This document shows, piece by piece, positions 4,527-53,643 of a DNA stretch of 64,000 bases. The notes below the pieces were generated by a model. The model saw nothing but the letters and a program-made list of their open reading frames with translations. It searched no databases and was not told the DNA's origin. Source of the stretch: a virus; the IMG/VR virus record IMGVR_UViG_3300028840_006907, positions 192,001 to 256,000 of that record; one strand, given 5' to 3'. Position 1 is the stretch's first letter. The number at the start of each line of letters is the position of its first letter. A program made the translations under genes and the position numbers.

Positions 4527-6488
4527 CTACTCTTCTTCGTCAAATAGTGAATAACTTTCGTATTTTATTTTTTTGTTCTCAACTTTAGTTGTTTCTGGTT
4601 CCGGTTTAGGAGTATCTCCAGTTATACCTAACATCTCAAGGAAAATTTTTTCATTAATTACCTGAACTCCGTATTTCTCAGCTTTCTGGGATTTGTTTGA
4701 ACCTTTATCTTCATTACAAACCAAATATGATAAATTTTTAACAACGGAATTCTTATTAGTACCACCATTTTCTTTCACTAATCCTTGGTAATGCCCACGT
4801 GGATGTTCCATTGATCCGGTAAAACAAAAAGACAGTCCGTCCAGAATACCTTTTTTCTCTTCTTCAACAGTAATGACTTTAAGTAATTCTGTGATCTCAG
4901 ATTTATATTTGATTAATCCCATGACTACATTATTTGCTGAAATGTCAGAAAATCCTTTTAAGGCTTTTATATCATCCACACTTTTTTCCATTAAATTCTC
5001 TATTGTACCAAATGCCTTTATTAATTCTTCTGAGGTTCCTTCAGATATCCCAGGGATTCCTAGAGCAGATAAAAACACAACAGGGGTAAGAGTATATGTT
5101 TTATCAATATTATTCATGACTTTTTGAGCAGATTTTTTACCCCATTTTTCAATTACAGCTATATCCTCTTCTTGAAGTCTGTATATATCGAAAATTTTAT
5201 TCAGTTTCCCAGCTTCACTTAATTTGTCAGCTAAGCTTTCACCAAATTCCTCTATTTTAGTAACTTTGATCCAATTTAAAATTCGGTAGAATATTTTTTT
5301 GGGACAATCATCATTTTCACATATGAGTTTGATACCATCATTAAGAAGCTTAGAATTACAGCTAGGGCACTCTGTTGGGATCTCAATAGGGTTACCCATA
5401 TGAGTAAGAACTTTGGTTATCTTTGGGATTATATCCCCGGCTTTAACTACCATTACAACATCACTACGACCTATACCAAGTCTCTTTATTTCGGCAATAT
5501 TATGCAAGGTTGCTTTTTTAACTTCTGACCCATCGATTATTACTGGTTCCAAGTGAGCCAGAGGTGTAACTACTCCTGTTCTCCCTACTTCCCATGTTTC
5601 TTCATTGAATATTGTAGCTGCACCAGGGGGTTCGAATTTCCAGGCTATTTGGGCTTTAGGTCTGTTTCTGGTAACACCCATTTTTTTCTGAACTTGGTAA
5701 GAGTTCACTTTTATGACAGCACCATCAATATCGAAAGGAAGTTTTTCTCGTTCTACAGCTATTTTTTCGAAAGCATCTACGATTTCCTCTTTTTTACCCA
5801 CTACAGTGAAAGGAATGTTAAACCCAAGTTCATCAAGTCGTTTTATTTTATCCTGTTCATCAAGAGGTTCTGTTAAATCATATGCCATTAAGAATAGGTA
5901 TTTACTGAATTTTCCATCCAGTCTTCTACTAATACCAGAAGCAGCATTTCGTGGATTACTATATTTATCATTTTCAGATAAAACTGTATTGATTTCTTTG
6001 AAATGAGTTTTACTTAATAATATTTCAGCTCTAACAGATCCGGTAAAGTCAGGCATTTCAGATCTTAATACTTTCATATGATCTACATTCTCTTTTATAT
6101 TTTCCCCAGTAGTACCATCACCTCTGGTAATAGCTTTGACCAGTTTCGATTCTTCGTGATCAAGAGAGAGGCTTAATCCATCTAATTTATACTGTAAGAT
6201 ATAAACAGTATCAGGTTTGAATTTCGATGCCCACTTGATAAATTCTTCTTTACTATGTACTTTTTCAAGGCTACCCATGAATATACCATGTTTAGCTTTT
6301 TCCCAATGGGAGGATGGCTCATGACCTACCTTTTCAAAGTAAGGGTGATTAGGAGCCTGTTTTTTAACAAGTGCTCTTAAAGTATCATACTCTTCATCAG
6401 TCATAATTGGATGACCAGAAGATTCATAGGCTTTATCTGCAGCAATAAGTTTATTTATGCTTAATTGTATATCTATCTGTTTTCCCAT
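4527..6488 (-). CDS. ligA: NAD-dependent DNA ligase
   Basis: 653 aa; adenylation motif YKLDGLS (KxDG), Cys4 zinc finger CPSCNS...CENDDCP, HhH region, C-terminal BRCT-like LDGLSFCFTG. Confidence 0.9.
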   Translation of the reverse strand: MGKQIDIQLSINKLIAADKAYESSGHPIMTDEEYDTLRALVKKQAPNHPYFEKVGHEPSSHWEKAKHGIFMGSLEKVHSKEEFIKWASKFKPDTVYILQYKLDGLSLSLDHEESKLVKAITRGDGTTGENIKENVDHMKVLRSEMPDFTGSVRAEILLSKTHFKEINTVLSENDKYSNPRNAASGISRRLDGKFSKYLFLMAYDLTEPLDEQDKIKRLDELGFNIPFTVVGKKEEIVDAFEKIAVEREKLPFDIDGAVIKVNSYQVQKKMGVTRNRPKAQIAWKFEPPGAATIFNEETWEVGRTGVVTPLAHLEPVIIDGSEVKKATLHNIAEIKRLGIGRSDVVMVVKAGDIIPKITKVLTHMGNPIEIPTECPSCNSKLLNDGIKLICENDDCPKKIFYRILNWIKVTKIEEFGESLADKLSEAGKLNKIFDIYRLQEEDIAVIEKWGKKSAQKVMNNIDKTYTLTPVVFLSALGIPGISEGTSEELIKAFGTIENLMEKSVDDIKALKGFSDISANNVVMGLIKYKSEITELLKVITVEEEKKGILDGLSFCFTGSMEHPRGHYQGLVKENGGTNKNSVVKNLSYLVCNEDKGSNKSQKAEKYGVQVINEKIFLEMLGITGDTPKPEPETTKVENKKIKYESYSLFDEEE

Positions 6489-9372: not shown

Positions 9373-10332
9373 ATGAAGTTACCTCAAGTAATTGGTCATG
9401 AAGAATTGAAAATCAGATTGATACCTCGTTTAGAAAAACATCCTGCAGGAGTCTTTCTCTTCTGTGGTCCAGCCAGTGTGGGGAAACGTACAACTGCTTT
9501 TGAAGTGGGTAAATCCATCTTATGCAAAAATAAATCAGAAAAGTGTAAGTGCGATTCATGTAAGAGATTTAATGAAGGTCATCCGGACTTTTTGTGTATT
9601 GGTACTGAAAGTAGAATAAAGGTAGCTGATGTTAATTCTATTATAGATTTTTGTACCACTGCTCCATTTTTATCAAATAGTAAAATTATTGTTATTGATA
9701 ATGCCCATGAAATAACTCTTGAGGCAGCTAACCGGTTATTGAAATTATTGGAAGAACCTCCTTTAAATTTTTCCTTTTTCTTAATTACGTCAAATCCGGA
9801 AGCAATAATACCTACTATTGTTTCCAGGTGTATTAGGTATGAATTTGGAAATTTATCCCGAGAGGAACTGACTATAATTATAAAGAAGAAATTGGGATTC
9901 AGTCCTAAAAAGGCTGAAACTCTGGGATGGCTTGCAGCAGGTTCTTCATTAGATATATTCGATAAGGCTGGAGAGTATTTAAAATATCGAAACATGGCTC
10001 TTGAATTGGTTTCGAATATGAAAAAAAGATATCTGGTAGATTCTATTGATTATATCGATAAGATCGAAAAAGGTGATTTATCTCTTTTTAATGATATGAT
10101 TGTTTTAGTATTAACAGATTTAATATTATTAAAAAATAATATTTCAGAGATTGCAAATATAGATAAGAAAGACAATCTTGTTAAAATAGCTGAGATTTAT
10201 AATGACCGAGCATTGATAGGAATTGTTGGGTTATTCAGTCAAGTAAAAAGATACTTGTATTTGAATATAAATCTGAATCTCTATTTAAAAAATGCTGTGA
10301 TAAAAACATATCCATTATTTAAGGCGGATTAA
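9373..10332 (+). CDS. holB: clamp-loader AAA+ subunit, DNA polymerase III delta-prime-like
   Basis: 319 aa; P-loop FCGPASVGKRTT, cysteine cluster CKNKSEKCKCDSCKRF typical of HolB/DnaX zinc module. Confidence 0.6.
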   Translation: MKLPQVIGHEELKIRLIPRLEKHPAGVFLFCGPASVGKRTTAFEVGKSILCKNKSEKCKCDSCKRFNEGHPDFLCIGTESRIKVADVNSIIDFCTTAPFLSNSKIIVIDNAHEITLEAANRLLKLLEEPPLNFSFFLITSNPEAIIPTIVSRCIRYEFGNLSREELTIIIKKKLGFSPKKAETLGWLAAGSSLDIFDKAGEYLKYRNMALELVSNMKKRYLVDSIDYIDKIEKGDLSLFNDMIVLVLTDLILLKNNISEIANIDKKDNLVKIAEIYNDRALIGIVGLFSQVKRYLYLNINLNLYLKNAVIKTYPLFKAD

Positions 10333-11297
10333 TGAAATATAGGGAAGCTTTAACTTCATTACGTTTTAAGAAGAATACAAAATTTGCTCTAGTTGGTAAA
10401 GAGAGTTATTTGAAAGAATATTTCATTAAAATAGCAAATAAAATCTATAATACTTATACAATAAAAACATTTTTCCCTGAGGACCAGTCAGAAGCTCTCA
10501 GTCTATTGAGATGCGATTCTTTATTTGAAGATAATTTTTTAGTTTTAAATAATTTTGATAAAATGAAGATTGACATTTTTCAGGATACTTTAAATACCTA
10601 TGATGGAGTAGTGGTTATTACTCTCTCAGAAAAAGCTAATATAAAATCGAGAGCTATCACAAAAATTTTTAGTGATTTAACTGTAGTTGAGTGTTCTAAA
10701 CTGCGTGAATACGGCAACGATTATCCTTTATGGATAAGAGGATTGATAACAGAAGCAGGTTTTAGTGCAGGTGATAATATTGACCAATTGCTTTTTTCTA
10801 GAGTTGGGCCGAATATGCATGTCCTTGCTCGGGAACTGGAAAAATTGTTTTTATTAAAATCAGAGGAAAAAGTGATTACTTCAGAGGATGTGAAAAAAGT
10901 CGTTGCAATATCAGCAGTAAGTACTGCATTTGAATTGTTTGAACATCTTTTAAGAAGGAATGTTAATAAAGCGTTGGCTTGTTTTTCCTCTTATTCGAGA
11001 AATAGTGATAATTTTTTCGAGATTGTGTCATTTATAGGTTCTTATCTTGAAAAGATGTATCGGATGATTCTTTTACGGGAGAGAAAATTTGATGTTAATG
11101 ATGTAGCTGATATAGTAGGTATACCTAAATTTCTTGTAAAAATGAAATATTTGCCGTGGGCCTTATCTTTTGGGAAAAATGGTCTCGCTAAAAAAATAGA
11201 TGCTATCTGTAATTTAAACATTCAGTTAAGGTTATTTAGGGGAAATAAAAAAATTCTCTTTGAGAGATTTATTTATAGTTTTTCAAAAGATTATTAA
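10332..11297 (+). CDS. putative clamp-loader delta-like subunit
   Basis: 321-aa ORF translationally coupled (TAATG) to the delta-prime-like gene; size and position fit HolA, sequence support weak. Confidence 0.35.
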   Translation: MKYREALTSLRFKKNTKFALVGKESYLKEYFIKIANKIYNTYTIKTFFPEDQSEALSLLRCDSLFEDNFLVLNNFDKMKIDIFQDTLNTYDGVVVITLSEKANIKSRAITKIFSDLTVVECSKLREYGNDYPLWIRGLITEAGFSAGDNIDQLLFSRVGPNMHVLARELEKLFLLKSEEKVITSEDVKKVVAISAVSTAFELFEHLLRRNVNKALACFSSYSRNSDNFFEIVSFIGSYLEKMYRMILLRERKFDVNDVADIVGIPKFLVKMKYLPWALSFGKNGLAKKIDAICNLNIQLRLFRGNKKILFERFIYSFSKDY

Positions 11298-11305
11298 TTT
11301 GTTGT

Positions 11306-11983
11306 TTGCATTTTTTTAAACACGTTGTAAGATTATATATGGTTTTAAATGATGTTGAAGGTGCGGTCCATCTCATTCATGAGCATGGTGAAAGATTCGA
11401 AGGTTGGTATTTTTCTAAAAATATTTTAGAGAAAAAAGACCTTACACTTAAATATAAAAAGATCCAGTTAACGTACAATTTTAATGTACTGGATTATAAT
11501 TTTCGTTTTGTTATGCCTTCCAGGATAGAGTTCATTGGGGGCCTAATTTCTTATTCAAATGGGGAACGGGAATTAGGGATATTTAGGTTTCCGCGTGATG
11601 CTGATGGTAAGTTTATAGCTCCTATATCTTTGGATAATAAAGAGATAAATGATTACATGAATTTATCAAAGGATGCAATAGATAAATTACTATCTTTAAA
11701 AGAACCTTTAATTTTTGAAGCCTTTAGAATACCTCAATATGGGTTTGAGTTGTTTGACCTAACTCCTGAAATTATTGAGGATATAAGAAAAGACACTGAT
11801 GATGAGTTTGTGGAGTATGTAAAGAGTGTTCCCGACCGCGTCATTAAAGAGAAAACAGCCGAAATCATAAATAAAATTAACTCTGGGATTAATTATCTTT
11901 TAATACTCAGAAATGTCTTGAATCGTCAATGGAAAGACCTAAATGAGGTATCCTTGGCGACAGATGGAATAATACATATATAA
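11306..11983 (+). CDS. hypothetical protein
   Basis: 225-aa ORF. Confidence 0.5.
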   Translation: MHFFKHVVRLYMVLNDVEGAVHLIHEHGERFEGWYFSKNILEKKDLTLKYKKIQLTYNFNVLDYNFRFVMPSRIEFIGGLISYSNGERELGIFRFPRDADGKFIAPISLDNKEINDYMNLSKDAIDKLLSLKEPLIFEAFRIPQYGFELFDLTPEIIEDIRKDTDDEFVEYVKSVPDRVIKEKTAEIINKINSGINYLLILRNVLNRQWKDLNEVSLATDGIIHI

Positions 11984-12002
11984 GTATAGGAAATCAAATA
12001 AG

Positions 12003-15000
12003 ATGGAGATCGAGATGCTATCACCTTTTGGGAAAATTGTCTGGGAAGATCGATACGCGCTGAAGGATGAATATGGGAAATTAATTGAAAAAAATATTTT
12101 AGAAACATTTCGTAGAGTTGCTACAGCTATTGCTTCTAAGGAAAAAGACTCTAAGTTTTGGGGTGACAAATTTTATAAGATTATGGCAGACCAATCTTTC
12201 TGTCCAGCCGGTAGAGTCCTAGCCCATTCAGGTACACATTATTCTCAACTTCTCAATTGTTTTGTTCTCCCATTCCAGGATGACAGTCTGGAAGAGATTA
12301 TGAACACTGGTAAAAACATGGCTATTGTTCAAAAATATGGTGGGGGCTGTATTGGAGGTGAGAGTAATATTCTTACTAATAAAGGTGTTGTACCATTAAA
12401 AGAAATTGTTGAAGGAAATGATAAAGATCTTAAAGTACTATCTTTTAATTCTGATAATAATGAGATGGAATACTGTGATATTTTAGAAAGACATACAAAT
12501 AATTTATCTGGGGATCGTGTATTCGAAATTGAGTTCGATAATACAAAAGGCGGTGTTGCATCAAGAATAAGAGCTAGCGATTGGCATCCCTTTTTTGTTT
12601 TTGATGGAGTAAAGATAATCCAAGTACGTGCTGATGAGTTAAAACCTGGGATGGCTGTAATAGGCTCAACTGATTTAGGGGTAAATTTAAAGTATGATTC
12701 TATGGGTTGGTTATTAGGTTATATTGCTGGTGACGGTTCGATTGATACTAATAATGGGGAAGATGTACGTGTTAGGGTAGTAGATGACAGTGAAGAGTGT
12801 GTTAAACGTGCAGCAGGAATATTTAATACATCTTATAAACCTTCTAGTGATAAACGTTATAAAGTAAAAATGTGGGCTTGTGAGGTTTATGGAGATGAAG
12901 CTGGGATGGTAAAGGATGAGTTTGGGGGGTATCAAACTAGTGGTACAAAACATGTCCCGAATTCTATCTGGGAAAGTTCTCCTGAAAGAAGACTTTCTTT
13001 TTTAGTTGGGCATATTGATGCAGATGGCTGGTTTAATAAAGAGAAAAAAAGATTTGAAGTTTTTACTGTTAGTAATGAATTGGCAAAAGAATTAATAGCC
13101 TTAGCTGGTGGTCTTGGTATTCGGGCTTCACTACGTTTTAGAAAATCACGTAAAGAAAATGAGCAAGATGGTTGGGAAGTTAGGTATAGTAGCTCTCAAT
13201 TTTCGATTGATTTAATTGTTAATATTAGTGCAAAACATAACCCACTCAATGCTGGATGGGTTATGGGTACTATAAATTTATCTCATGAATGGAAAGATCA
13301 TTTAAAAAGCGTAGGTATTAATGTTTATACAAATAAAGCATGGAGAAAGTCAATTGAAATTGATGGTGTAAAAAGATCATTAGTTTATTGGTTACAGCAT
13401 GGTAAAGCTTCAAGAGAAACTGCTGCTTCTATTCTTAGAGTGTGTGGTGAAGAAAAGATAGCAAGTGCTGTTTTATCTAGCCAAATAGTACTCTCTTCAA
13501 AGGCTACAGGAATTTCAGAAACATTATATGATCTCACTATTGCAAAAAATCAAACATATATGGCATCAGACCCAACTACAGGGGCTTATGTTGTTGTGCA
13601 TAATACAGGATTTAATTTCAGTAGGCTCAGACCATCAGGTTCATATATAAAAGGTGTCAATGGTCGTAGTAGTGGACCCATCGGATTTATTAGCATGATG
13701 TCAACTATCTCAGAAATAATTGAACAAGGCGGGACCCGCAGGGGCGCGTCAATAGGGCTTCTTGAGGCATGGCACCCTGATTTATGGGAGTTTGTTTCTT
13801 ATAAAACTGAACATAATTGGGAATGTCTTCGAGAATTTATTGATGTGAATGATTACGATAAATGGGAATCATTTAAATATGAAAATTTATATAAATGGCA
13901 AATGTTCAATGTCTCTGTAGGAATTACTGATGATTTCTTAGAATCTGTTAAAAACAATAAGGAATGGGTATTTAATTGGAAAGGGGAAGAGTGGGAACTT
14001 TATACCGTTATTTTTAAGAAATATATAAGTGAAGGTAATTACAAAGAATTAACATTTGAAGTTACAGCTAACAATGATCCTACTGCTATATGGAAAGTAA
14101 GAAAGAAAATACCTTATCCTACTGGTAGTGATATATTTGAAGTTACATCAAAAAGAAAAGTAAAAGCTTCCGAGATCTGGGATAGACTGTGTTATAATGC
14201 CTGGGCTGATGGATGTCCGGGCATTATCAATTTAAGTACTGCTCGTAGGATGCATAATTTAGAATATGCCTTCCCTATAGAAGCTACTAATCCTTGTTTT
14301 ACTGGAGATTGTAAATTGGATACTATCAATGGTCCTATGACTTTTGAAAGTCTTGAGGATAAAGAAATTGATCTTAAAACTCCATATGGTTCTATTGAAA
14401 AAGGTAGAATTTGGAAAACAGGGGTAAAATCTACTATCAGATTAAAATTTAATGATGGTAGTTCAATAACGGTTACTCCCGATCAACTATTTTTGTGTCA
14501 TAAAGGAAAAGAGATACGGGCTAAGGATTGTTTAAATAAATGTTTAAATACTTCGGATATACCGTTAAGTGTAGTTTCAATAGAGGATAATGGTGAACAA
14601 GAGGTCTATGATTTTTCAATCCCATGTAATTGGGGTATAGTTAATGGAATAGTGGCTCATAATTGTGGGGAGCAACCTTTAGGGGGATTTAGTTCTTGCA
14701 ATTTGTCAAGCATACTCCTTCCTAATTTTGTTATAGAGGATACCAAATCAGTTGATTGGGATAAACTTAAAGAGGTTGTTCATACTGCTGTCAGATTTTC
14801 GGATAATGTTGTAGATAATTGTGAATTTCCGATTCCGGAAATTAAAGATAAAGCATATCAGGAAAGACGTGTCGGACTAGGTACTATGGGAGTTCATGAC
14901 ATGTTAATCAAAATGGGACTAGATTATGATAGTGATGTGGGTCGTGATGCTGTGGAAGAGGTATTAAGATTTATTCGGGATGAAGCTTATAAAGCATCAA

Positions 15001-45828: not shown

Positions 45829-46470
45829 TTATCTATCAAATTCTGAAATTTTCATATCTTTTAAAGTGATTATATAATTCTTTTTAACACCACTCTCAAT
45901 GAATTTGATTAATGACTCCGATGCTACTGCCACTGCCAGAAGTATAATATTCCTGGCCAATGGGTACTCGCATACATCAGGAGCTATCGTGTCTTTTGGG
46001 ACGGTATAAGATTCGTTCCATATTATTTCCGCGTAATCCTGAGACAGCCCGACATGTAAACAGCTCAAACCATTATCCTTACAATATTGATAAACTAATT
46101 TTCGGCTAATATTATTATCAAAAGAATCGATGATAATATTTGGTTTTTTCAAATATTTACTCACAGTAGTTTTATTAAGTTCTTTACTATTGGCATTCAA
46201 AACAGTTTTGGTTGAAGCATATGCTCTCATTTTCATAGTCGCTACTTTGTAGGTACCTTTTTCATTTTGGTTCCAGATCTGGGTACCATTATTGTGAGGT
46301 TCAATTCTGTCTTTATCGATAATTGTAATTTCTTTGAATCCCTGTCGAACTAAATTATCACAAAGATTTGACCCTATTGCTCCGACACCACAGAGTGTAA
46401 TTGGGGTTGTTGATAATTTACCAACTACTTCTTCAGATCGATACATTCTTTCATGTATTAATAAATCCAT
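45829..46470 (-). CDS. ThiF/MoeB-family E1-like adenylyltransferase
   Basis: Rossmann GxGxxG (LCGVGAIGSNL) followed by IIDKDRIEPHN (DxDx-IE-xxN) signature of E1-like enzymes. Confidence 0.7.
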   Translation of the reverse strand: MDLLIHERMYRSEEVVGKLSTTPITLCGVGAIGSNLCDNLVRQGFKEITIIDKDRIEPHNNGTQIWNQNEKGTYKVATMKMRAYASTKTVLNANSKELNKTTVSKYLKKPNIIIDSFDNNISRKLVYQYCKDNGLSCLHVGLSQDYAEIIWNESYTVPKDTIAPDVCEYPLARNIILLAVAVASESLIKFIESGVKKNYIITLKDMKISEFDR

Positions 46471-46474
46471 AATA

Positions 46475-46999
46475 TCATCCTATCCTAGCTATAATGCGAT
46501 CTTTTAACAAGACAAAGGGAATTTCAATACAACCTACAATCCGGTCTTTGTCTCTTTTATATAAATAAAATCTTTGTACTTCTGATTTGATTCCACATAA
46601 TAACGGTTTACCCAAAGCTTTGACCCAACCAGTCATAGTTTTATCATCTAAGGATGAAGGTTCCATTATATTACTTGGATGAGTATGATTAAAACCTACT
46701 ATTTTATTTCTGTCTCTGATTACTTTTTCCCAGTCAAAATCAACTGAACCAGGACCACCAGTGGATTCATAGATTAGTCTACCATAAATCCATTTGCAGT
46801 ATTTTTTACCATATATGATCCAACAATTTTCGTTAATTGTTTGTACTACTTCAATAGCTTCTATTGTTAATTTATTTTTATTGTAAATACCTTTATATGT
46901 TCGACCACATTCTGGGCATGGCATTCTTTGTGTTTCATTTTCTGTAATCCAGCATATATATTTTCCGCACTTACATGTAAATTCACTGCTTTCGGGCAT
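46475..46999 (-). CDS. JAMM/MPN+ metalloprotease with N-terminal zinc ribbons
   Basis: HTH-PSNIMEP-S-SL-D fits JAMM motif HxHx7Sx2D; two CxxC pairs at N-terminus. Confidence 0.7.
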   Translation of the reverse strand: MPESSEFTCKCGKYICWITENETQRMPCPECGRTYKGIYNKNKLTIEAIEVVQTINENCWIIYGKKYCKWIYGRLIYESTGGPGSVDFDWEKVIRDRNKIVGFNHTHPSNIMEPSSLDDKTMTGWVKALGKPLLCGIKSEVQRFYLYKRDKDRIVGCIEIPFVLLKDRIIARIG

Positions 47000-47025
47000 A
47001 GGGATATATCCTTATTTTAGATTTT

Positions 47026-47925
47026 CTAATACAACGTTCTACTTATTTGATGAGTGCGTTGACCCTCTTTTATTACAGAAATTAATGCTTTTAAATCATA
47101 GTCTTTATCACCAACATGACCTGTTTCATGGTCGGTTAAACAGATGCCTGCAGTAATAACGTGGTGACTTTGATCTTTAGTAACAATAGTATTAAATTTC
47201 TCTCCATCGATTTCATATGTTACATAAATATGATCCGATTTTTCATCACTGCTCAGGTATTTACCTCCGGCAAATTCTATATCACGTTGAATCTTTGTTT
47301 TTTTCTTTTCTTCAAGTGCTCGTTCACGTTCTTCTTTGATTTTTAAATCGATTTTGTATTTTATGTTAAAAGCAATTTTCTCCTCCAATGTCAGACCAGA
47401 GAATTTTAATTTAGATGGGTCTCTGAATTCTTTCAGGGACTCATTAAGATAATCTGTAATCATCGGATCGGCTGACATATCCATTGAATCAAACCAGATA
47501 TTAGCTCCGTCAAATCGGCATAGACATTTAGAAAATGTTGTAACCATATCATCGAAAAGAAGAACTGGGTATAATTCTGATACTTTTAATCCCAGATGAT
47601 TACTCTTTATCGGGATCCCAAGATAAAAATCTTTCTTTTTATGTACTAAAACCATTCTTATCTTTGGTAAATATTTAAGATAAGATTGAATCTCATCTAT
47701 TTCCGCTAAATCTATTGCTTCAGCCCGTTTATTATCAAGTGCTTTGAATTTGTACCATCCCGGTTCTGTTTTCGGGATGTTTAAGTAATGAATAATTCCT
47801 TGAATACGGATAATGATTCGGTCATTATAATACACAGGAGAAATGATAGTCTTTTCAGTCATCATTTCTTCCTGTTTCCCTATTTTATCAATAAGGTTTA
47901 AAATATTATCTTTTCTTACGGTCAA
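47026..47925 (-). CDS. hypothetical protein
   Basis: 299-aa ORF between JAMM and Ro60-like genes. Confidence 0.5.
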   Translation of the reverse strand: MTVRKDNILNLIDKIGKQEEMMTEKTIISPVYYNDRIIIRIQGIIHYLNIPKTEPGWYKFKALDNKRAEAIDLAEIDEIQSYLKYLPKIRMVLVHKKKDFYLGIPIKSNHLGLKVSELYPVLLFDDMVTTFSKCLCRFDGANIWFDSMDMSADPMITDYLNESLKEFRDPSKLKFSGLTLEEKIAFNIKYKIDLKIKEERERALEEKKKTKIQRDIEFAGGKYLSSDEKSDHIYVTYEIDGEKFNTIVTKDQSHHVITAGICLTDHETGHVGDKDYDLKALISVIKEGQRTHQISRTLY

Positions 47926-49462
47926 AAGATTTCCTCACGGGTAAAGGTGTATCCATGATCTCATATAGAAGATCGAGTTTTGATTTTCTGGATAGCAATG
48001 GAATTAATCCAGGCAATCCATAGTAATCGCTACCTTCAGGTTCATAGTAATCGAAAGGTATTCTAGCTTGTTTTAAATACATGCTGAATTCTTTACGACT
48101 CCATGAACTTGGAATGTAAATAATAGTAATAGTAGGAGTCACATTAAATTTTTTAACATAATTATCCCATATCTCAACGAAAAATGGATTATTATTTTCA
48201 CCTTCATCAGTGACCACTATTATCTGTTCTACATAATAGTTTTTTCTAATAAGGTAATCTAATGCTATACCTATGGAAGTCCCACCATTACTTTTTACAG
48301 GTCTGAAAGCCCTTTCCCAGGCAGACATATTCGGTTCATTAGCTGTGATCTCTCTGGCCATTGTATCAAAAGTAATAGCATAGAGAGGAGCTTCTGTAGC
48401 ACCTGAAATAAGAGCCGCAACATTTTTTCCGACTTCGATGGCTTGAGTCATAGAACCTGATTTATCGATAAAGACTGCAGTAGGTACTTTTATAACACCT
48501 TTCTTTTTAATTTGCTGATCTGCAATTTCATCGAGGATCTTTTGAGATTCCTCATTTTTGATCCGACCTGTTTTCTTTGCTTCTTTGGATTTTAAAGCTG
48601 ATACATTTTTAGCTTTTTTAGCTTTTTCCAATTTAGCCGTAATCAATGTTTTTGTATCCTCATTGTCCATGGCACCACGTTCTTCTAGGGAAGCATAGTT
48701 ATTAATAACTTCCTGTGGAGACATAGCATTGATTAGAGCAATCAGAATTGTAGGAGTGATTTGATCAACCAAACCTACAGCCACCGTATAAGGTACTTTA
48801 TGTTCTATAATCAGCTTTGCCACTTCAGTCGGATTATCAGCTTGTGCTATTTTTTCGAAAACATTTAATTTACTGTCCGTAGGACGTTCATTTCCGAAAA
48901 GAATCTTCTGAGCACGTTCACTAGGTGCTATACGAAGAGTAGCATATAATCCTTTAAGATCTTTTGGACTTTTTAGGGCAATAGCATCAAAAAGATCGTT
49001 GTTGGTTTCAATATATTGAAGAAATTTCTCAACATCCCTTTTAAAGGCAGTAGGAATATTTTTGTAAAGACCTACATTTTTTTCTTCAATTTTTACTTCA
49101 TCGATCATTTTTTTCTTCATTTTTATTTTTTTGCCCGTTTTATTTCTGATCTTTATTTTTTTACCTTTAATAAAACCGACCACACGTCTTTTAAGATATA
49201 CAGGTATTTCCCTGAAGAGGGCTAGCCCAACTTCACGGTTGTCAAGAAATTCATCAACAATAAGTGAACCGATGAATACTTCTTTATGATCCCGAATATC
49301 TCCATTCTTGTAGTACCAGCTTCCAAGGTGGGCATAAAACAGCGGATCTGCTTTTTGTAATTCAAGATGGGTATTTTTTAATTTATCTAGGTCCCGGTGA
49401 GGGCAACTCAGAAATGAGTTAAGCATGTTAACTCTGATATCATTTTCGTTAGCTTGGTTCAT
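47906..49462 (-). CDS. rsr: Ro60/Rsr-like RNA-binding protein (TROVE-like N-terminal region plus vWA domain)
   Basis: C-terminal vWA with MIDAS residues FIDKSGSM, NGGTSIG, VVTDEGEN (same arrangement as Ro60 DVSASM / AGGTD / FTDNE as recalled); N-terminal ~320 aa with ILIAL helix; next to tRNA-mimic RNAs. Confidence 0.6.
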   Translation of the reverse strand: MNQANENDIRVNMLNSFLSCPHRDLDKLKNTHLELQKADPLFYAHLGSWYYKNGDIRDHKEVFIGSLIVDEFLDNREVGLALFREIPVYLKRRVVGFIKGKKIKIRNKTGKKIKMKKKMIDEVKIEEKNVGLYKNIPTAFKRDVEKFLQYIETNNDLFDAIALKSPKDLKGLYATLRIAPSERAQKILFGNERPTDSKLNVFEKIAQADNPTEVAKLIIEHKVPYTVAVGLVDQITPTILIALINAMSPQEVINNYASLEERGAMDNEDTKTLITAKLEKAKKAKNVSALKSKEAKKTGRIKNEESQKILDEIADQQIKKKGVIKVPTAVFIDKSGSMTQAIEVGKNVAALISGATEAPLYAITFDTMAREITANEPNMSAWERAFRPVKSNGGTSIGIALDYLIRKNYYVEQIIVVTDEGENNNPFFVEIWDNYVKKFNVTPTITIIYIPSSWSRKEFSMYLKQARIPFDYYEPEGSDYYGLPGLIPLLSRKSKLDLLYEIMDTPLPVRKSFDRKKR

Positions 49463-49483
49463 AATATCTCATCCTCCTTATGT

Positions 49484-49750
49484 TCAGGTTTCAATTTTTC
49501 CGAAAGTAGCATTTGGTCTAACTGTAATGTTACCATTTTTATGGTGTTCAACAACTAATTCAGCAAATTCTGATGCTGGTCTATCATAATGATCTACTAA
49601 AGCCAATTTAATTTGTTCACCAGTTATATTATCCGATGTGATCTCGGTTCCTGGTTCAATCCCGAGTTGTTCCCATCTGTCTTCTGGGAAAAGATCTTTG
49701 AGATTAATATCTTCAGTTTGACCATCATACATTATATGGACTTCACTCAT
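49484..49750 (-). CDS. hypothetical small protein (first gene of the Ro60-like operon)
   Basis: ATG at 49750 with RBS AAGGAGG; promoter-like motif upstream; 88 aa. Confidence 0.5.
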   Translation of the reverse strand: MSEVHIMYDGQTEDINLKDLFPEDRWEQLGIEPGTEITSDNITGEQIKLALVDHYDRPASEFAELVVEHHKNGNITVRPNATFGKIET

Positions 49751-49790
49751 ATGAGCCTCCTTGTAATAAGTTAAAAAAAGAGTCCCGTAT

Positions 49791-49806
49791 ATTATACGAC
49801 ACGAGA
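49791..49806 (-). promoter_or_regulatory. promoter-like motif TCTCGTGTCGTATAAT (minus strand)
   Basis: Copy of recurrent element ~35 nt upstream of the minus-strand operon RBS. Confidence 0.45.
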
Positions 49807-49888
49807 TTAACATTTCATTAAGTAAAAAATTGGGTAGAATATAAATTCTTGTGTGTCATCATGGTAAATAACTTTTTTAAAAAAATTA

Positions 49889-49917
49889 TTGACACACTTA
49901 AAATTTATGGTTATATT
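49889..49917 (+). promoter_or_regulatory. sigma70-like promoter candidate for the tRNA / structured RNA locus
   Basis: TTGACA, 17-nt spacer, TATATT, ~40 nt upstream of tRNA. Confidence 0.4.
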
Positions 49918-49955
49918 ATTGACAGTTCTGCACTCTAACTTTTGATGCTTACATA

Positions 49956-50032
49956 GAGAAAATAGCTCAGTTGGTCAGAGCGCGAGATTTAGGTTCTTGA
50001 AGTCTTCGGTTCAATTCCGAATTTTCTTACCA
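49956..50032 (+). tRNA. tRNA, predicted anticodon UAG (Leu-type) with short variable loop and encoded CCA
   Basis: Cloverleaf: acceptor GAGAAAA/TTTTCTT, D arm GCTC-AGTTGGTCA-GAGC, anticodon arm CGAGA-TTTAGGT-TCTTG, 5-nt variable loop, T arm TTCGG-TTCAATT-CCGAA, A73, CCA. Confidence 0.75.
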
Positions 50033-50249
50033 TAAAATTAGCACCTTCAACTTGTGCAGAACTACTTAAACCAAGAAATAAAAGTCAGACATTCTAATTA
50101 TTAGGGCGTACATGGCGTTAAAACCATGCTTCCTGCAGAAATCAGGAAGCAATCTCTGGGCCAAGGCTCAGGGGCGCACTGATGACTTATGTCTGACTTA
50201 ATATAGATTGTAAAGTGTTGTAAAATAAATTTGATCTTTGAAAATTATA

Positions 50250-50429
50250 GGATAATGCCTTCTAACCTGTTGGGCTTACAAATTTTACTGGTTCGACTCC
50301 AGGTTCCGCCTCTCGGTCCTTTTGTAAAGATTGTAAAGGATCAGGAGGCGGAACAAGCCGGGTGGTCTGGCGATTGAATGCAAATCAATTTATTTGAAAT
50401 TAACGCTCTTTTAACTTGGGCATTTATCC
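50250..50429 (+). ncRNA. tRNA-mimic structured RNA unit 1 (Y RNA / YrlA-like candidate)
   Basis: Outer stem GGATAATGCC/GGCATTTATCC then T-run; T-arm-like GGTTCGACTCC; long hairpin GTTCCGCCTC...GAGGCGGAAC; D-arm-like GCCGGGTGGTCTGGC; hairpin ATTGA-ATGCAAA-TCAAT. Confidence 0.55.
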
Positions 50430-50477
50430 TTTTTTATAGTAATTTATAATTTTATATAAAGTGATCTTTGAAAATAT

Positions 50478-50660
50478 GAGGTAAGTGCCTCCTAACATAA
50501 CGGGCTTACAAATTAATAGGGTTCAACTCCCTGTTCCCCCGCCTAAGTCTTTGTCATATAATGATTAAGATTTGGGCGGGGGAACGAGCTGGGTGGTTCA
50601 GCAATCAACGTTTAATTGATGAAAAACATTTTTACGCTCTTTTAACTTAGGCACTTACTC
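50478..50660 (+). ncRNA. tRNA-mimic structured RNA unit 2 (Y RNA / YrlA-like candidate)
   Basis: Outer stem GAGGTAAGTGCC/GGCACTTACTC then T-run; T-arm-like GGGTTCAACTCCC; long hairpin GTTCCCCCGCC...GGCGGGGGAAC; D-arm-like GCTGGGTGGTTCAGC; hairpin ATCAA-CGTTTAA-TTGAT. Confidence 0.55.
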
Positions 50661-50683
50661 TTTTTATTAAATTGAAATTACAA

Positions 50684-50855
50684 GGAGCACCTTCTAACCT
50701 GTTGGGCTTACAAGTTATTCGGGGTTCAAATCCCTGTCCCGGCACTAGGTTGATTCCCTAAAAGTCAACCCAGTGCCGGGATAGCCAAATTGGTAAAGGC
50801 GACTATATTGAACATAGTAAACAAAACTATCTACGCTCTTTTAACTTGGGTGCTC
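50684..50855 (+). ncRNA. tRNA-mimic structured RNA unit 3 (Y RNA / YrlA-like candidate)
   Basis: Outer stem GGAGCACC/GGTGCTC; T-arm-like GGGGTTCAAATCCC; long hairpin TCCCGGCACT...AGTGCCGGGA; D-arm-like GCCAAATTGGTAAAGGC; hairpin ACTAT-ATTGAAC-ATAGT. Confidence 0.55.
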
Positions 50856-50899
50856 TTTATATATTTCTCGCAAAAGGAATACAGGGTGAAACAGGAGTA

Positions 50900-50940
50900 T
50901 AGGGATTAAGAAGAAATTTTTGATCCCTATTTTATTTTTT
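50900..50940 (+). terminator. terminator candidate after RNA locus
   Basis: TAGGGAT ... ATCCCTA stem with 16-nt loop followed by TTTTATTTTTT. Confidence 0.35.
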
Positions 50941-50955
50941 CCCGGATTTTCCCTA

Positions 50956-50972
50956 CCTTCATGTCGTATAAT
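50956..50972 (+). promoter_or_regulatory. promoter-like motif CCTTCATGTCGTATAAT
   Basis: 16/17 identical to the element at 18192-18208; ~45 nt upstream of ATG 51016. Confidence 0.45.
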
Positions 50973-51015
50973 TATTAGATAAAGATTTTCTAAACATTTT
51001 ATTAGGTAATTAATT

Positions 51016-53643
51016 ATGACATGTAAAATTTGTAAGAGTAATCTTTCTTATACTTTTGATAAATTTCCAGCTTATAAGTTCTGTCCTTGTTGTAACCTTT
51101 ATTTTCAAGAAGAATTTCCACCAAAGATATTTGAAGGTCCTGATGAGAATAACGGGCATGGTCCCGGTACAGGTCATTTAATGTCTGAGGATGAAAAGGA
51201 AATAAATAAAAATTTCGCTAATGTTCTCTATGATATGTTTATTCCTCGAACTCTTCTAGATATAGGTTGTAAATACCCCTATTTTATTAGTGTGTTAAAA
51301 GATAAAATAGATGTATTAGGAATTGATCCTATTTCAGAGATCTTGAAATATGGAGAAGAATTGGGTGTCTCTGTAATTCGTGATGATTTTGAAGATATGA
51401 ATATTACTCCTTTAAAAAATAAATTCGATTTAATAACTTTGATACATACTTTCGAACATTTTTATAGCCCAATAGAGACCATGAAAAAGATAATCGAATG
51501 TCTTACTCATAGAGGAGTGCTTTTAATAAGAATTCCAAACATAGATATTGAAGGTATAGAAAGAGATTTTACTGATCATCATGTTCAAATCCATCCCTTT
51601 ATATATTCAACACAAGCAATGTATCGAATCGCTCAAAAATTTGATTGTGAAATTTTTAGGGTCGATGATATTATTGGATATGGCCAGAGCGATTTTTATT
51701 TAAGGAAGAAAAGGGACCATCTTTCTTTATCGGTTTGTATGATTGTAAAAGATGAGGAAAAGAATGTTTCTGATTGTTTGGAGAGTATAAAAGATGTAGC
51801 TGATGAAATCATAGTTGTGGATACCGGATCTATAGATAATACCAAAGAAATAGTATCCAAATATACAACAAAGATATATGACTTTAAATGGATTGATGAC
51901 TTTTCTGCTGCTAGAAATCACTCTTTAAGTAAGGCAACGGGTGACTTTATTTTATGGCTTGATGCTGATGATATTGTAGAAAATCCAGAAAAGATTAATG
52001 AAATATTAAAAAATGATGATGCTAAGATATTTAATTTTAATATTAAATATGGAAATGATGTCTTTAGTCAGGCTAGACTATTTAGGAATTTTTATAATAT
52101 AAAATTTTCTGGTAGAGTTCATGAATATCCTGTAATCGATAATTTATATATAAAAGATACTGAAGTTAATGTAATTCATAAAACCGAAAAACATTCAACA
52201 GAAAACCGTTCTGATAGAAATCTCCGTCTCCTTAAAAAAGAATACGAAGATAATCCGAACAATTCCCGGACACTTTTTTACCTGGCAAGTGCTTATAAAG
52301 AACTTACTCGTTGGGATGAAGCTATAGATTTTTATCGAAAATATTTAACTATTTCTATCTGGAAAGATGAGAGATGGATGGCTCAAAAGAATATTGGATG
52401 TATTCTTTCCTGGAATAGAAAATATGAAGAAGCCATTGAAGAATTGAAGAAGGCTATTGAAATAGATGATCGATGGGCTGAGTCATATTATTATATAGCT
52501 GAGTGTTATTTCTATTTAAAAAACCCTCAAGAATGTATAAACTGGTCTTTAAAAGCTATTGAGAAAAAGATGCCCGAATCACCTCTTTGGAAAGAGATCC
52601 CAATTTATAATGACGCACCATACCGTTATCTCTTTGCTTCTTATGGTTCTTTAGGTGATTTTGAGAAAGCATTGCATTATTGTAAGATAGCATCAGAAAA
52701 AGTTCCTGAGGATGAATGGCTTAAGGAAAGAGTCACTTATTTTGAGAATGCTACAAAAGGAGTTCCTGTTGTAGTCGAATGTAATCGGTGGGGGGCTTTG
52801 GGTGATTGTTTAATGACAACTGCATCTTTACGTGCCATTAAGCATAAGATTCCGGGTTGTTTTATAAGATATGTCACCCATCCTAGTATGTTCCCGATCC
52901 TTGAAGGGAATAAGTTTATAGATGAACTTGTATCAGAATCTAAATCTGAGAACTCAGAAAAGGTTTATTTCTCATATCCTGACAGTAAATCTCCTATTAA
53001 AGATGAAGGTTATCCTAATAAGCCTTTGAATCGCCATTTAGTACGTATATTCGCAGAATGTGCTGGTTTAAAAGAATTTGATAATCTAAAGATGGAGTGT
53101 ACTCTTACAAAAGATGAGGAGAAATCAGGTCAGTCATTGAGATCTCGATTTAAGAAATATGTGACTCTTCATATCCATTCGGGTTGGTCTGAGTATAAGG
53201 ATTGGTATAATGATCGTTGGGAGACTGTTGTAGATGAGTTATTTAAAAGAGGTTACGTGGTTGTTCAGCTAGGCCATAAAGATGAGGGTCTCTTAGTTGG
53301 TACTGTGGATTATAGAGGCCATACTATAAAAGAAGCTATCTCTGCAATAAAATATGCTGATATTCATTTAGGAGTGGATTCATTTACAAACCATGCCTCG
53401 GCTACTGTGGGGACTCCTGCAGTTATTTTATTTGGGTCTACTTCTCCAACCGGTTCCGGGTATGATCAGAATATAAACCTTTATAAAGATTTGAAATGTC
53501 AGCCTTGTTATAAAGAATATGCATGGTCTAAGGATAATAAAGGAAAATGTCCTTATAATAAACTATGTATGGATCAGATCCTGGTTCAGGAAGTATTAGA
53601 CGGTTTTATGAGATTAGAAAAAAAATTATTTATTGATGGATAA
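51016..53643 (+). CDS. multidomain glycosyltransferase (Zn-ribbon, methyltransferase-like, GT2, TPR, GT9-like)
   Basis: N-terminal CxxC pairs; LLDIGC methyltransferase-like motif; GT2 core SVCMIVKDEE...EIIVVDTGSIDNT...LWLDADD; TPR-like helices; C-terminal GT9-type LGVDSFTNHASATVGTPAVILFG. Confidence 0.7.
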   Translation: MTCKICKSNLSYTFDKFPAYKFCPCCNLYFQEEFPPKIFEGPDENNGHGPGTGHLMSEDEKEINKNFANVLYDMFIPRTLLDIGCKYPYFISVLKDKIDVLGIDPISEILKYGEELGVSVIRDDFEDMNITPLKNKFDLITLIHTFEHFYSPIETMKKIIECLTHRGVLLIRIPNIDIEGIERDFTDHHVQIHPFIYSTQAMYRIAQKFDCEIFRVDDIIGYGQSDFYLRKKRDHLSLSVCMIVKDEEKNVSDCLESIKDVADEIIVVDTGSIDNTKEIVSKYTTKIYDFKWIDDFSAARNHSLSKATGDFILWLDADDIVENPEKINEILKNDDAKIFNFNIKYGNDVFSQARLFRNFYNIKFSGRVHEYPVIDNLYIKDTEVNVIHKTEKHSTENRSDRNLRLLKKEYEDNPNNSRTLFYLASAYKELTRWDEAIDFYRKYLTISIWKDERWMAQKNIGCILSWNRKYEEAIEELKKAIEIDDRWAESYYYIAECYFYLKNPQECINWSLKAIEKKMPESPLWKEIPIYNDAPYRYLFASYGSLGDFEKALHYCKIASEKVPEDEWLKERVTYFENATKGVPVVVECNRWGALGDCLMTTASLRAIKHKIPGCFIRYVTHPSMFPILEGNKFIDELVSESKSENSEKVYFSYPDSKSPIKDEGYPNKPLNRHLVRIFAECAGLKEFDNLKMECTLTKDEEKSGQSLRSRFKKYVTLHIHSGWSEYKDWYNDRWETVVDELFKRGYVVVQLGHKDEGLLVGTVDYRGHTIKEAISAIKYADIHLGVDSFTNHASATVGTPAVILFGSTSPTGSGYDQNINLYKDLKCQPCYKEYAWSKDNKGKCPYNKLCMDQILVQEVLDGFMRLEKKLFIDG

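Follow-up and report, generated by a model that had tools for sequence, protein, structure and literature searches.

Organisation of the locus

A 64-kb stretch of viral DNA (IMG/VR record IMGVR_UViG_3300028840_006907, positions 192,001–256,000; hereafter the window, whose own numbering is used throughout) contains a cluster of small repeated RNAs close to the gene for a putative, highly diverged homologue of Ro60. A preliminary description of the sequence had proposed three tandem structured RNAs of about 180 nt, related to the YrlA-type Y RNAs that partner Ro60 in bacteria, with a Ro60-like gene about 800 bp away. All the features listed for the RNAs were found on the + strand at the positions given. 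Units 1–3 (Table 1) measure 182, 180 and 177 nt, with start-to-start spacings of 230 and 203 nt, and two further RNAs framed in the same way, u0 and uY, lie upstream, so that the total is five. The open reading frame of the 518-amino acid (aa) Ro60-like protein starts 788 bp from unit 1 on the opposite strand. It lies in an operon with the gene order ubiquitin-like (Ubl-like), Ro60-like, 299-aa protein, JAB peptidase and ThiF/E1-like protein (45829–49813, − strand).

Table 1. Positions of the RNAs, their parts and the neighbouring genes in the window
Feature	Position	Strand	Remarks
σ70-like promoter	49889–49917	+	TTGACA-17-TATATT, 11/12; consensus match only
u0	49924–50063	+	Handle enclosing a complete tRNA-Leu(UAG) with encoded CCA (49956–50032); tRNA model 65.9 bits
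uY	50082–50199	+	Same handle, payload of ~60 nt, not tRNA-like; minimum free energy −53 kcal/mol
Unit 1	50249–50430	+	z −4.75 against shuffled sequences
Unit 1, handle 5′ half	50249–50281	+	
Unit 1, T-arm	50288–50302	+	
Unit 1, acceptor-like hairpin	50303–50354	+	
Unit 1, D-arm	50357–50371	+	
Unit 1, anticodon-like arm	50373–50389	+	Loop AUGCAAA
Unit 1, handle 3′ half	50403–50430	+	
Unit 1, T-run	50430–50435	+	
Unit 2	50480–50659	+	z −7.84; tRNA shape once rotated
Unit 2, handle 5′ half	50480–50511	+	
Unit 2, T-arm	50518–50532	+	
Unit 2, acceptor-like hairpin	50533–50585	+	
Unit 2, D-arm	50588–50602	+	
Unit 2, anticodon-like arm	50604–50620	+	Loop CGUUUAA
Unit 2, handle 3′ half	50634–50659	+	Followed by T-run
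Unit 3	50682–50858	+	z −6.94; tRNA-Ser(UGA) shape (ARAGORN) once rotated
Unit 3, handle 5′ half	50682–50713	+	
Unit 3, T-arm	50720–50736	+	
Unit 3, acceptor-like hairpin	50737–50781	+	Followed by U8 A9
Unit 3, D-arm	50784–50800	+	Class-II-like
Unit 3, anticodon-like arm	50802–50818	+	Loop AUUGAAC
Unit 3, handle 3′ half	50833–50858	+	
Terminator-like hairpin	50899–50940	+	With T-run, after unit 3
ThiF/E1-like adenylyltransferase	45829–46470	−	E 1.9e-23
JAB/JAMM-type peptidase	46475–46999	−	
299-aa conserved partner protein	47026–47925	−	Predicted N-terminal helix and barrels like the oligonucleotide/oligosaccharide-binding (OB) fold
518-aa cryptic Ro60 homologue	47906–49462	−	Assigned by fold: helical-repeat ring and vWA domain with MIDAS residues (metal ion-dependent adhesion site)
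Small protein	49484–49750	−	Ubiquitin-like by C-terminus only; homologues of 85–88 aa ending ..RPxAxFG/GG

Structure of the repeated RNAs

Read inwards from its ends, each of units 1–3 has a closing helix, a YCTAAC..GGGCTTACAA block, a T-arm with GGTTCRANTCC, a long hairpin and a D-arm with GG, followed by a 5-bp stem with a 7-nt loop and the block ACGCTCTTTTAACTT. This architecture was reproduced by thermodynamic folding of each unit alone (z-scores from −4.75 to −7.84), and no shuffled sequence was as stable as the units. The closing stems vary yet remain paired: AGGATAATGCC/GGGCATTTATCCT with one bulge, GGTAAGTGCCT/AGGCACTTACT, and AAGGAGCACC/GGGTGCTCTTT with G.U pairs. The T-run said to follow each closing stem is present after units 1 and 2 and weaker after unit 3. 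All three anticodon-like loops have A37 and two have U33, in agreement with the earlier account. The motif GGTTCRANTCC occurs four times in the window, always on the + strand and within 50008–50733, against a mean of 0.19 in shuffled sequences, none of 100 of which reached four copies.

Nine permuted cores from seven contigs (the window and six others) were aligned after replacement of their distal acceptor-like hairpins by GAAA. RNAalifold recovered unaided a T stem (5 bp, 7-nt loop), an acceptor-like stem (7 bp), a D stem (3 bp) and an anticodon-like stem (5 bp, 7-nt loop), with double compensatory changes in 18 of the 20 consensus pairs. The compensatory variation first noticed among the three units thus holds in an alignment with homologues, and the three repeats are real structured RNAs.

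The closing helix and the conserved blocks beside it form a single element, which we call the handle, and which is shared by u0 and uY. In u0 the closing helix is AGTTCTGCAC/GTGCAGAACT, with TCTAAC..GCTTACA on the 5′ side and ..AGCACCTTCAACTT / ..CTTCAACTT on the other; in uY the corresponding sequences are AAGTCAGACAT/ATGTCTGACTT, TCTAAT..GGCGTACA and GCGCACTGATGACTT. The 5′ block YCTAAY..RGGCKTACA is found in five copies within 49934–50712, with one match at two mismatches elsewhere in the window (61262), and the handle is confined to 49.9–50.9 kb.

A conserved two-helix handle

Handles were aligned in 66 distinct copies from 15 related huge-phage loci and the window, open copies having been closed in silico with a GAAA loop. 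The element, of about 55 nt, has a terminal helix (Pb) in which the two ends of the RNA pair, an asymmetric internal loop, a second helix (Pa) and an invariant UACA. Across the copies the 5′ strand of the internal loop reads YYNAAC and its 3′ strand RACUY; in the window, YCUAAC/YCUAAU follows the 5′ strand of Pb, and AACUU(G) precedes its 3′ strand. None of the 66 handles departs from A-C-U, and the flanking positions read R..Y-R. Most Pb helices have 8–15 bp, and Pa has 5–7 bp, the first being G-C. The 5′ strand of the relatives contains GUCC-CC-GA, or in some of them CCGAC, and the bulged GGUC-C-GA of metazoan Y RNAs resembles the former.

Over the 66 copies, 91.8% of cells were paired, compared with 32–51% when the partners were slid. 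Helix Pa, which played no role in choosing the copies, was 87.9% paired, and both sides had changed in six of its seven pairs, including G-C/C-G to G-C/U-A. The handle is therefore a conserved, modular and strongly covarying RNA element. The blocks at first taken to be single-stranded are indeed conserved, but they are partly paired, and correspond to the loop and Pa strands of the handle.

A scan of IMG/VR with a closed-handle pattern returned eight loci, of which three were true Ro60-like loci, three were apparently chance hairpins and two were related contigs. The hairpin in the related contigs has the form ..CAACTTGGACATGAAATTGTCTCC..AAAGCTTACCAAAA (L024, 157 kb, 12633–12700; L030, 220 kb, − strand, ~10030–10100), and no T-loops were found near it. 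An integron attC site or another repeat acting at the DNA level was also considered. The conserved blocks are direct rather than inverted, and this candidate was rejected because the helices use strand-specific G.U pairs.

A diverged Ro60-like protein and its operon

The AlphaFold2 model of the 518-aa protein (predicted local distance difference test score 81) has the helical-repeat ring and the vWA domain with MIDAS residues that characterise Ro60 and Rsr, including the phage-encoded Ro60 of Thermus phage phiLo (PMC12135203) and gp130 of phage Bas63 (bioRxiv 10.1101/2024.10.10.617714), both of which also have small structured RNAs or tRNA genes alongside. In a Foldseek search of the PDB, the full-length matches at ranks 1–13 were all Ro60/TROVE structures (E 4e-11 to 2e-8, template modelling score 0.53–0.62), among them phiLo Ro60, Xenopus Ro with Y RNA, human Ro60 and Deinococcus Rsr, while the matches below rank 13 covered the vWA domain only. 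Named matches among the viral models of BFVD included TROVE and Ro-like proteins, from a crAss-like phage and a Gordonia phage, respectively. MIDAS residues D333, S335, S337, T395 and D419 are invariant. These results support the identification of the 518-aa protein, from its modelled fold, as a highly diverged Ro60 homologue; the Ro60-like gene of the preliminary description is thus borne out by fold and not by sequence.

The protein differs from Ro60/Rsr in that it has no sequence similarity to TROVE detectable by Pfam, phmmer or profile hidden Markov models, in usually being encoded within an operon of Ubl-like, OB-fold, JAB and E1-like genes, and in a long lysine-rich β-hairpin (residues ~101–130, KKIKIRNKTGKKIKMKKKMIDEVKIEEKNVG) which in the model is inserted in the helical ring and may provide an additional RNA-binding arm. 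Part of the vWA region gave a weak PHROGs match annotated as HNH endonuclease (E 1e-4). The family comprises more than 1000 proteins on contigs of up to 595 kb, including an uncultured huge phage; when relatives among cultivated phages were searched with tblastn, the sole match was an uncultured 595-kb phage.

Conservation of the neighbourhood was assessed at 18 loci with Ro60-like relatives, plus four closer ones. T-loop motifs and handle RNAs cluster just upstream of the Ro60-like gene at 18/18 loci. By tblastn, all five operon genes were detected at 12 of the 18 and three or four at another five, two of which end at a contig edge. At L013, the handles and the Ro60-like gene were found and no other operon gene was detected, which mildly favours the Ro60-like protein as the partner of the handle. 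The RNAs are on the same strand as the Ro60-like gene in the 17 IMG/VR loci and L001, and on the opposite strand in the window and in L019–L021. Opposite-strand tRNA arrays also occur in L005 and L007, and these contain no handle motif. The small Ubl-like gene is directly 5′ of the Ro60-like gene in most of the loci where it was detected (13 of 18); the window protein ends in ..RPNATFG.

In the two closest relatives, L019 and L020, an RtcB RNA ligase is encoded a few kb downstream of the E1 gene (12197–13069 and 9755–12094, respectively; the latter, at 779 aa, is long enough for an intein), an arrangement that echoes the Salmonella rsr-yrlBA-rtcBA operon (PMC7790460). RtcB is absent from the window. 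A literature search yielded no account of the handle or the operon, nor of a Ro60 homologue linked to a ubiquitin-like/E1/JAB set; on Ro60 homologues in huge phages its only return was a single-line reference to TROVE proteins in certain jumbo phages.

Comparison with YrlA

YrlA RNAs combine a Ro60-binding stem with a tRNA-like module whose elements run (V), T, acceptor-like stem-loop, D; they are encoded within 4 kb of Ro60, in phages too, and carry the motif GNCGAAN0–1G on the 5′ strand (Chen et al. 2014, PMC4201824). The T-before-D order of the window units, first read from the sequence as YrlA-like, matches this layout (T, acceptor-like, D). The units share with YrlA their position near the gene for a Ro60 homologue and a module of T-arm, closed acceptor-like arm and D-arm with GG and UUCRA as loop signatures. 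As with YrlA, a locus can carry several RNAs of this kind, and long acceptor-like stems have been noted in cyanobacterial YrlA. The consensus of the Rfam YrlA family (RF02553) has a terminal helix cggCga/ucGccg, an internal loop AUGCu / aAaAcUuG and a 7-bp second helix, beyond which lie T, acceptor-like and D arms. The handle presents its elements in this order as well, and in both AACUUG directly precedes the 3′ strand of the terminal helix. Units of L016 scored 29.1 and 16.5 bits with the RF02553 model, compared with a gathering score of 69. They have the order V, T, acceptor-like, D without an anticodon arm, which is the classical YrlA layout.

There are also differences from YrlA. The window units retain a full anticodon-like arm, and the handle leaves the body at the variable-loop position instead of replacing the anticodon stem. 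Their handle is portable, being found in relatives in D-loops, around CCA-ended tRNAs or unrelated RNAs, or closed by GAAA. In the window the RNAs are on the opposite strand to the Ro60-like gene, whereas the criterion applied to YrlA is the same strand within ~4 kb. The layout, the covariation and the fold of the protein therefore support the proposal of YrlA-like partners of a Ro60-like protein, and do not extend to membership of the curated family RF02553. uY may have a role like that of YrlB beside YrlA.

tRNA mimics or tRNA genes

Units were rotated, and the handle replaced by a 5-nt variable loop, for analysis with ARAGORN. The program called unit 2 as a tRNA of Lys-UUU shape, unit 3 as one of Ser-UGA shape with a class-II D-arm, and two relatives likewise as tRNAs; unit 1 was not called and breaks the tRNA rules by having A8, no A14 and a 4-bp T stem. 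The calls are what would be expected if the units were genuine circularly permuted or split tRNA genes, the transcripts of which are processed, given CCA, aminoacylated and used in decoding. Opening of the acceptor-like hairpin, either by RNase P with a 3′ nuclease or by RNase III and subsequent trimming, would in that case give a two-piece or re-ligated product in which the handle serves as a long variable arm or as a guide for processing or ligation. Unit 3 fits such a product well, with its 7-bp acceptor, U8 A9, class-II D-arm, A73 and Ser-type anticodon loop, and its handle occupies the position of the long variable arm of tRNA-Ser. In the permuted tRNA genes of Cyanidioschyzon merolae and the split genes of Nanoarchaeum the 3′ half precedes the 5′ half, and the leader is paired with the trailer. 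The units have the same 3′-half-first order (T-arm and 3′ strand of the acceptor) and a paired leader and trailer. An RtcB ligase is encoded near the array in close relatives, and YrlA of M. smegmatis is cut by RNase P and gains CCA in vivo (PMC4201824).

The acceptor end is difficult to reconcile with such a pathway. In relatives the acceptor-like stems are 6–7 bp long and capped by UUCG (L006_9316, L018_6192) or GCAA (L001_4398), so that a discriminator and a trailer are both missing; the acceptor-like helix of the window units runs on for 10–25 bp and would be a poor substrate for RNase P. CCA is encoded in the whole tRNAs framed by handles and not in the permuted units. An acceptor end that could be freed (7 bp, then a discriminator and single-stranded flanks or CCA) was not found. 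Position 33 is G in unit 2, and the loops that correspond to it in L019 and L020 are of 6 nt or have G33; unit 1 lacks both U8 and A14. Unlike the C. merolae and Nanoarchaeum genes, the units have no bulge-helix-bulge motif at the junction, their acceptor end is continuous or capped by a tetraloop, the anticodon loops of relatives are degenerate, and the setting is viral or bacterial, where no splicing endonuclease was seen. We therefore consider it very unlikely that these are permuted tRNA genes. Because the acceptors are sealed (by tetraloops or an extended helix), no CCA is encoded and some anticodon-like loops are degenerate, the evidence argues for permuted bodies that are tRNA mimics with a sealed acceptor end, and not chargeable decoding tRNAs.

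Topologies of the handle in related phages

An array can contain a dozen copies of the handle, attached in several ways. It may be open at the tip of Pb with a whole CCA-bearing tRNA inside, as in u0 and many relatives. It may be open and joined to the variable-loop position of a tRNA body with a closed acceptor, as in units 1–3 and in L005_9448, L007_9455, L006_9316, L004_8993, L018_6192 and L001_4398, or be open and joined inside the D-loop (L006_8804, L005_9123). In a further topology a GAAA loop closes the handle, which is inserted in the D-loop of a tRNA gene that is normal in other respects. At L001 3804–3930, for example, the Rfam tRNA model aligns end to end (50.6 bits) with a 55-nt insertion after GGU. 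Open handles also surround payloads other than tRNA, including an RNA of ~290 nt, and nearly empty open handles stand alone and end in a terminator (for example, L001 7216–7296). The points of attachment are positions at which tRNAs tolerate variation in length, which suggests that the handle is kept in the mature RNA and not spliced out. A group I or bulge-helix-bulge intron was rejected, the handle being ~55 nt long, without bulge-helix-bulge geometry and at permissive tRNA positions.

Several details of these arrays were also recorded. Free-acceptor tRNA genes with a GAAA-closed handle, a 55–62-nt insertion in the D-loop or a replacement of it, are found at L001 3804–3930, 4013–4140 and 4276–4396, and also in L014 and L018. 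The ~290-nt RNA is conserved and highly structured (L001 ~4690–5010; L018 7402–7734) and matches no Rfam family at the gathering threshold. In u0, UACA lies directly 5′ of tRNA-Leu(UAG) and AUAAAAUUAGC follows CCA; many whole tRNAs of relatives are framed likewise, often as CCA-AAAAYUAGC. Unusual anticodon loops occur in handle-framed tRNAs or tRNA-like units at L005 8960–9100, L009 7386–7541, L004 8993–9146 and L010 6455–6615. Three phages share the loop CUAUUAA (anticodon AUU, with A34), and L010 has CUUCAAA (UCA, of opal-suppressor type).

The framing of whole tRNAs could also be explained if the handle were a cassette for processing or stability, a leader-trailer stalk of tRNA-array transcripts that acts independently of the Ro60-like protein and is cut, like the processing stems of rRNA, by host RNase III, RNase E or the OB-fold protein of the operon. 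The presence of UACA immediately ahead of the mature 5′ end and of AAAAYUA behind CCA would suit this role, as would the handle around the unrelated ~290-nt RNA in L001 and L018, the location of arrays inside or beside tRNA gene clusters, and the promoter before u0 and terminator after unit 3, which fit a single polycistronic precursor. However, the handle is absent from most tRNAs of the L013 and L015 arrays and from all those in the opposite-strand arrays of L005 and L007, and nearly empty, terminator-ended handles such as that of L001 stand alone. Cleavage of closed handles in D-loops would destroy the tRNA, most Pb helices, at 8–15 bp, are short for RNase III, and the handle sequence matches the Ro60-binding end of YrlA. 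A processing cassette is thus, in our judgement, an unlikely explanation.

A wider role for the handle is possible, and we put it forward only tentatively. It could be a portable docking tag that, in a large clade of huge phages, loads both tRNA mimics and genuine chargeable tRNAs onto the cryptic Ro60 ring. The acceptor ends, the D-loop or the variable loop would be the tag's points of attachment, and the ring would work with the ubiquitin-like/E1/JAB module and, in some phages, with RtcB. If so, the locus would encode a Ro60-based machine for tRNA custody, repair or counter-defence, a role that is undescribed for Ro60 and Y RNAs.

Proposed function of the RNAs and the Ro60-like protein

We estimate a probability of roughly 0.65 that units 1–3, with u0 and uY, are non-coding RNAs of the Y-RNA kind which serve the divergently encoded Ro60 homologue of a huge phage. 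The locus would represent a new modular variant of the Ro60/Y-RNA system, in which we infer that RNA and protein bind one another. The handle would dock against the ring of the Ro60-like protein, at its outer face, in the manner of Y RNA stems. In units 1–3 the body is a tRNA-shaped fold, joined to the handle at the variable-loop position and hence reading as a circularly permuted tRNA; with the acceptor end sealed, it is a mimic and not a chargeable tRNA. Such a mimic could offer a tRNA surface to proteins that recognise tRNA. Candidate targets are host exoribonucleases such as PNPase, as in known Ro60/Y-RNA complexes, and enzymes that modify, repair or cleave tRNA. The Ro60-like protein might thereby be tethered or gated during infection, the RNAs acting as tether or decoy.

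Several observations weigh against this interpretation. No TROVE sequence match was obtained for the 518-aa protein, which had no match in Pfam, NCBIfam or PADLOC, and neither phmmer nor a profile of 29 homologues found a PDB chain at E ≤ 10. Likewise, the Rfam YrlA (RF02553) and Y_RNA models gave no match on the window units (49800–51050, E ≤ 10), and in the window handles the CGAA of YrlA is replaced by YCUAAC/YCUAAU, so that the GNCGAAN0–1G motif is missing. Units 1 and 3 keep canonical 7-nt anticodon loops with U33 and R37, and a 7-bp acceptor and U8 are present in unit 3. Since most occurrences of the RNAs are accompanied by the operon proteins, the partner of the handle could instead be the OB-fold protein or another of these. 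The handle-like hairpin of the two related contigs, a TTACC variant, has no Ro60-like gene in the fetched flank. The handle also flanks genuine CCA tRNAs and sits closed inside the D-loops of normal tRNAs. To our knowledge neither arrangement is known for Y RNAs, and handles on genuine tRNAs could point to a role in tRNA processing.

The RNAs might also be free tRNA decoys for host anticodon nucleases or other tRNA-targeting defences, the Ro60-like protein being unrelated or a stabiliser. Permuted units of three phages share a Lys(UUU)-like anticodon loop (L018_6192, L001_4398 and unit 2 of the window), and tRNA-Lys(UUU) is a classic target of nucleases of the PrrC and PARIS types. A conserved handle would not be needed for such decoys, however; the anticodon-like loops are poorly conserved between close relatives, some having 6 nt, and there is no evidence of any nuclease targeting the units. 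A precedent is provided by phage Bas63, in which the Ro60-like gp130, encoded beside tRNA genes, counters the Ppl defence system, and some of the neighbouring ‘tRNAs’ were guessed by the authors to be Y RNAs (bioRxiv 10.1101/2024.10.10.617714). Decoys that act freely appear quite unlikely to us, and the idea overlaps the interpretation as Y-RNA-like partners of the Ro60 homologue rather than excluding it.

Ro60 and Y RNAs are conserved from bacteria to humans and their function is only partly understood. If the interpretation as a Ro60/Y-RNA variant holds, a clade of more than 1000 Ro60-like proteins has been missed by sequence-based annotation, and the putative Ro60-binding end is a separable module that has been grafted on tRNA scaffolds in at least four topologies. 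Nature would thus have supplied a series of constructs with which to probe the binding partner of the handle and the proteins drawn in by the tRNA-like body. The conserved association with a set for ubiquitin-like conjugation or sulfur carriage, and in close relatives with RtcB, would suggest a function in RNA repair or anti-defence in huge phages. Annotation pipelines would then overlook such RNAs or mislabel them as tRNAs.

Other elements of the RNA array

In the RNA region of the window the sole Rfam match at the gathering threshold was tRNA-Leu, and at E ≤ 10 there were weak matches of miRNA-type hairpins to the long stems alone. Comparison of the region with cultivated phages by blastn gave trivial tRNA similarity alone. 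A ribozyme was considered and rejected: no hammerhead, twister, pistol, hatchet or hepatitis delta virus ribozyme matched at E ≤ 10, despite a CTGATGA in uY. The payload of uY consists of two GC-rich hairpins, and similar units are present in L006 (9014–9147 and 9171–9297) and L019.

The promoter-like sequence, a strong one by consensus, ends 7 nt before u0. A leader, TGATCTTTGAAAAT (consensus RATCTTTGAAA), lies 5–10 nt 5′ of the closing helix in many units, at 50232–50245 and 50462–50475 in the window and also in L006, L019 and L021. In L006 it is found downstream of TTGATC-N17-TATATT promoters. Since the leader is downstream of promoters and upstream of the closing helix, primary transcripts may begin 5′ of the handle and then be trimmed.

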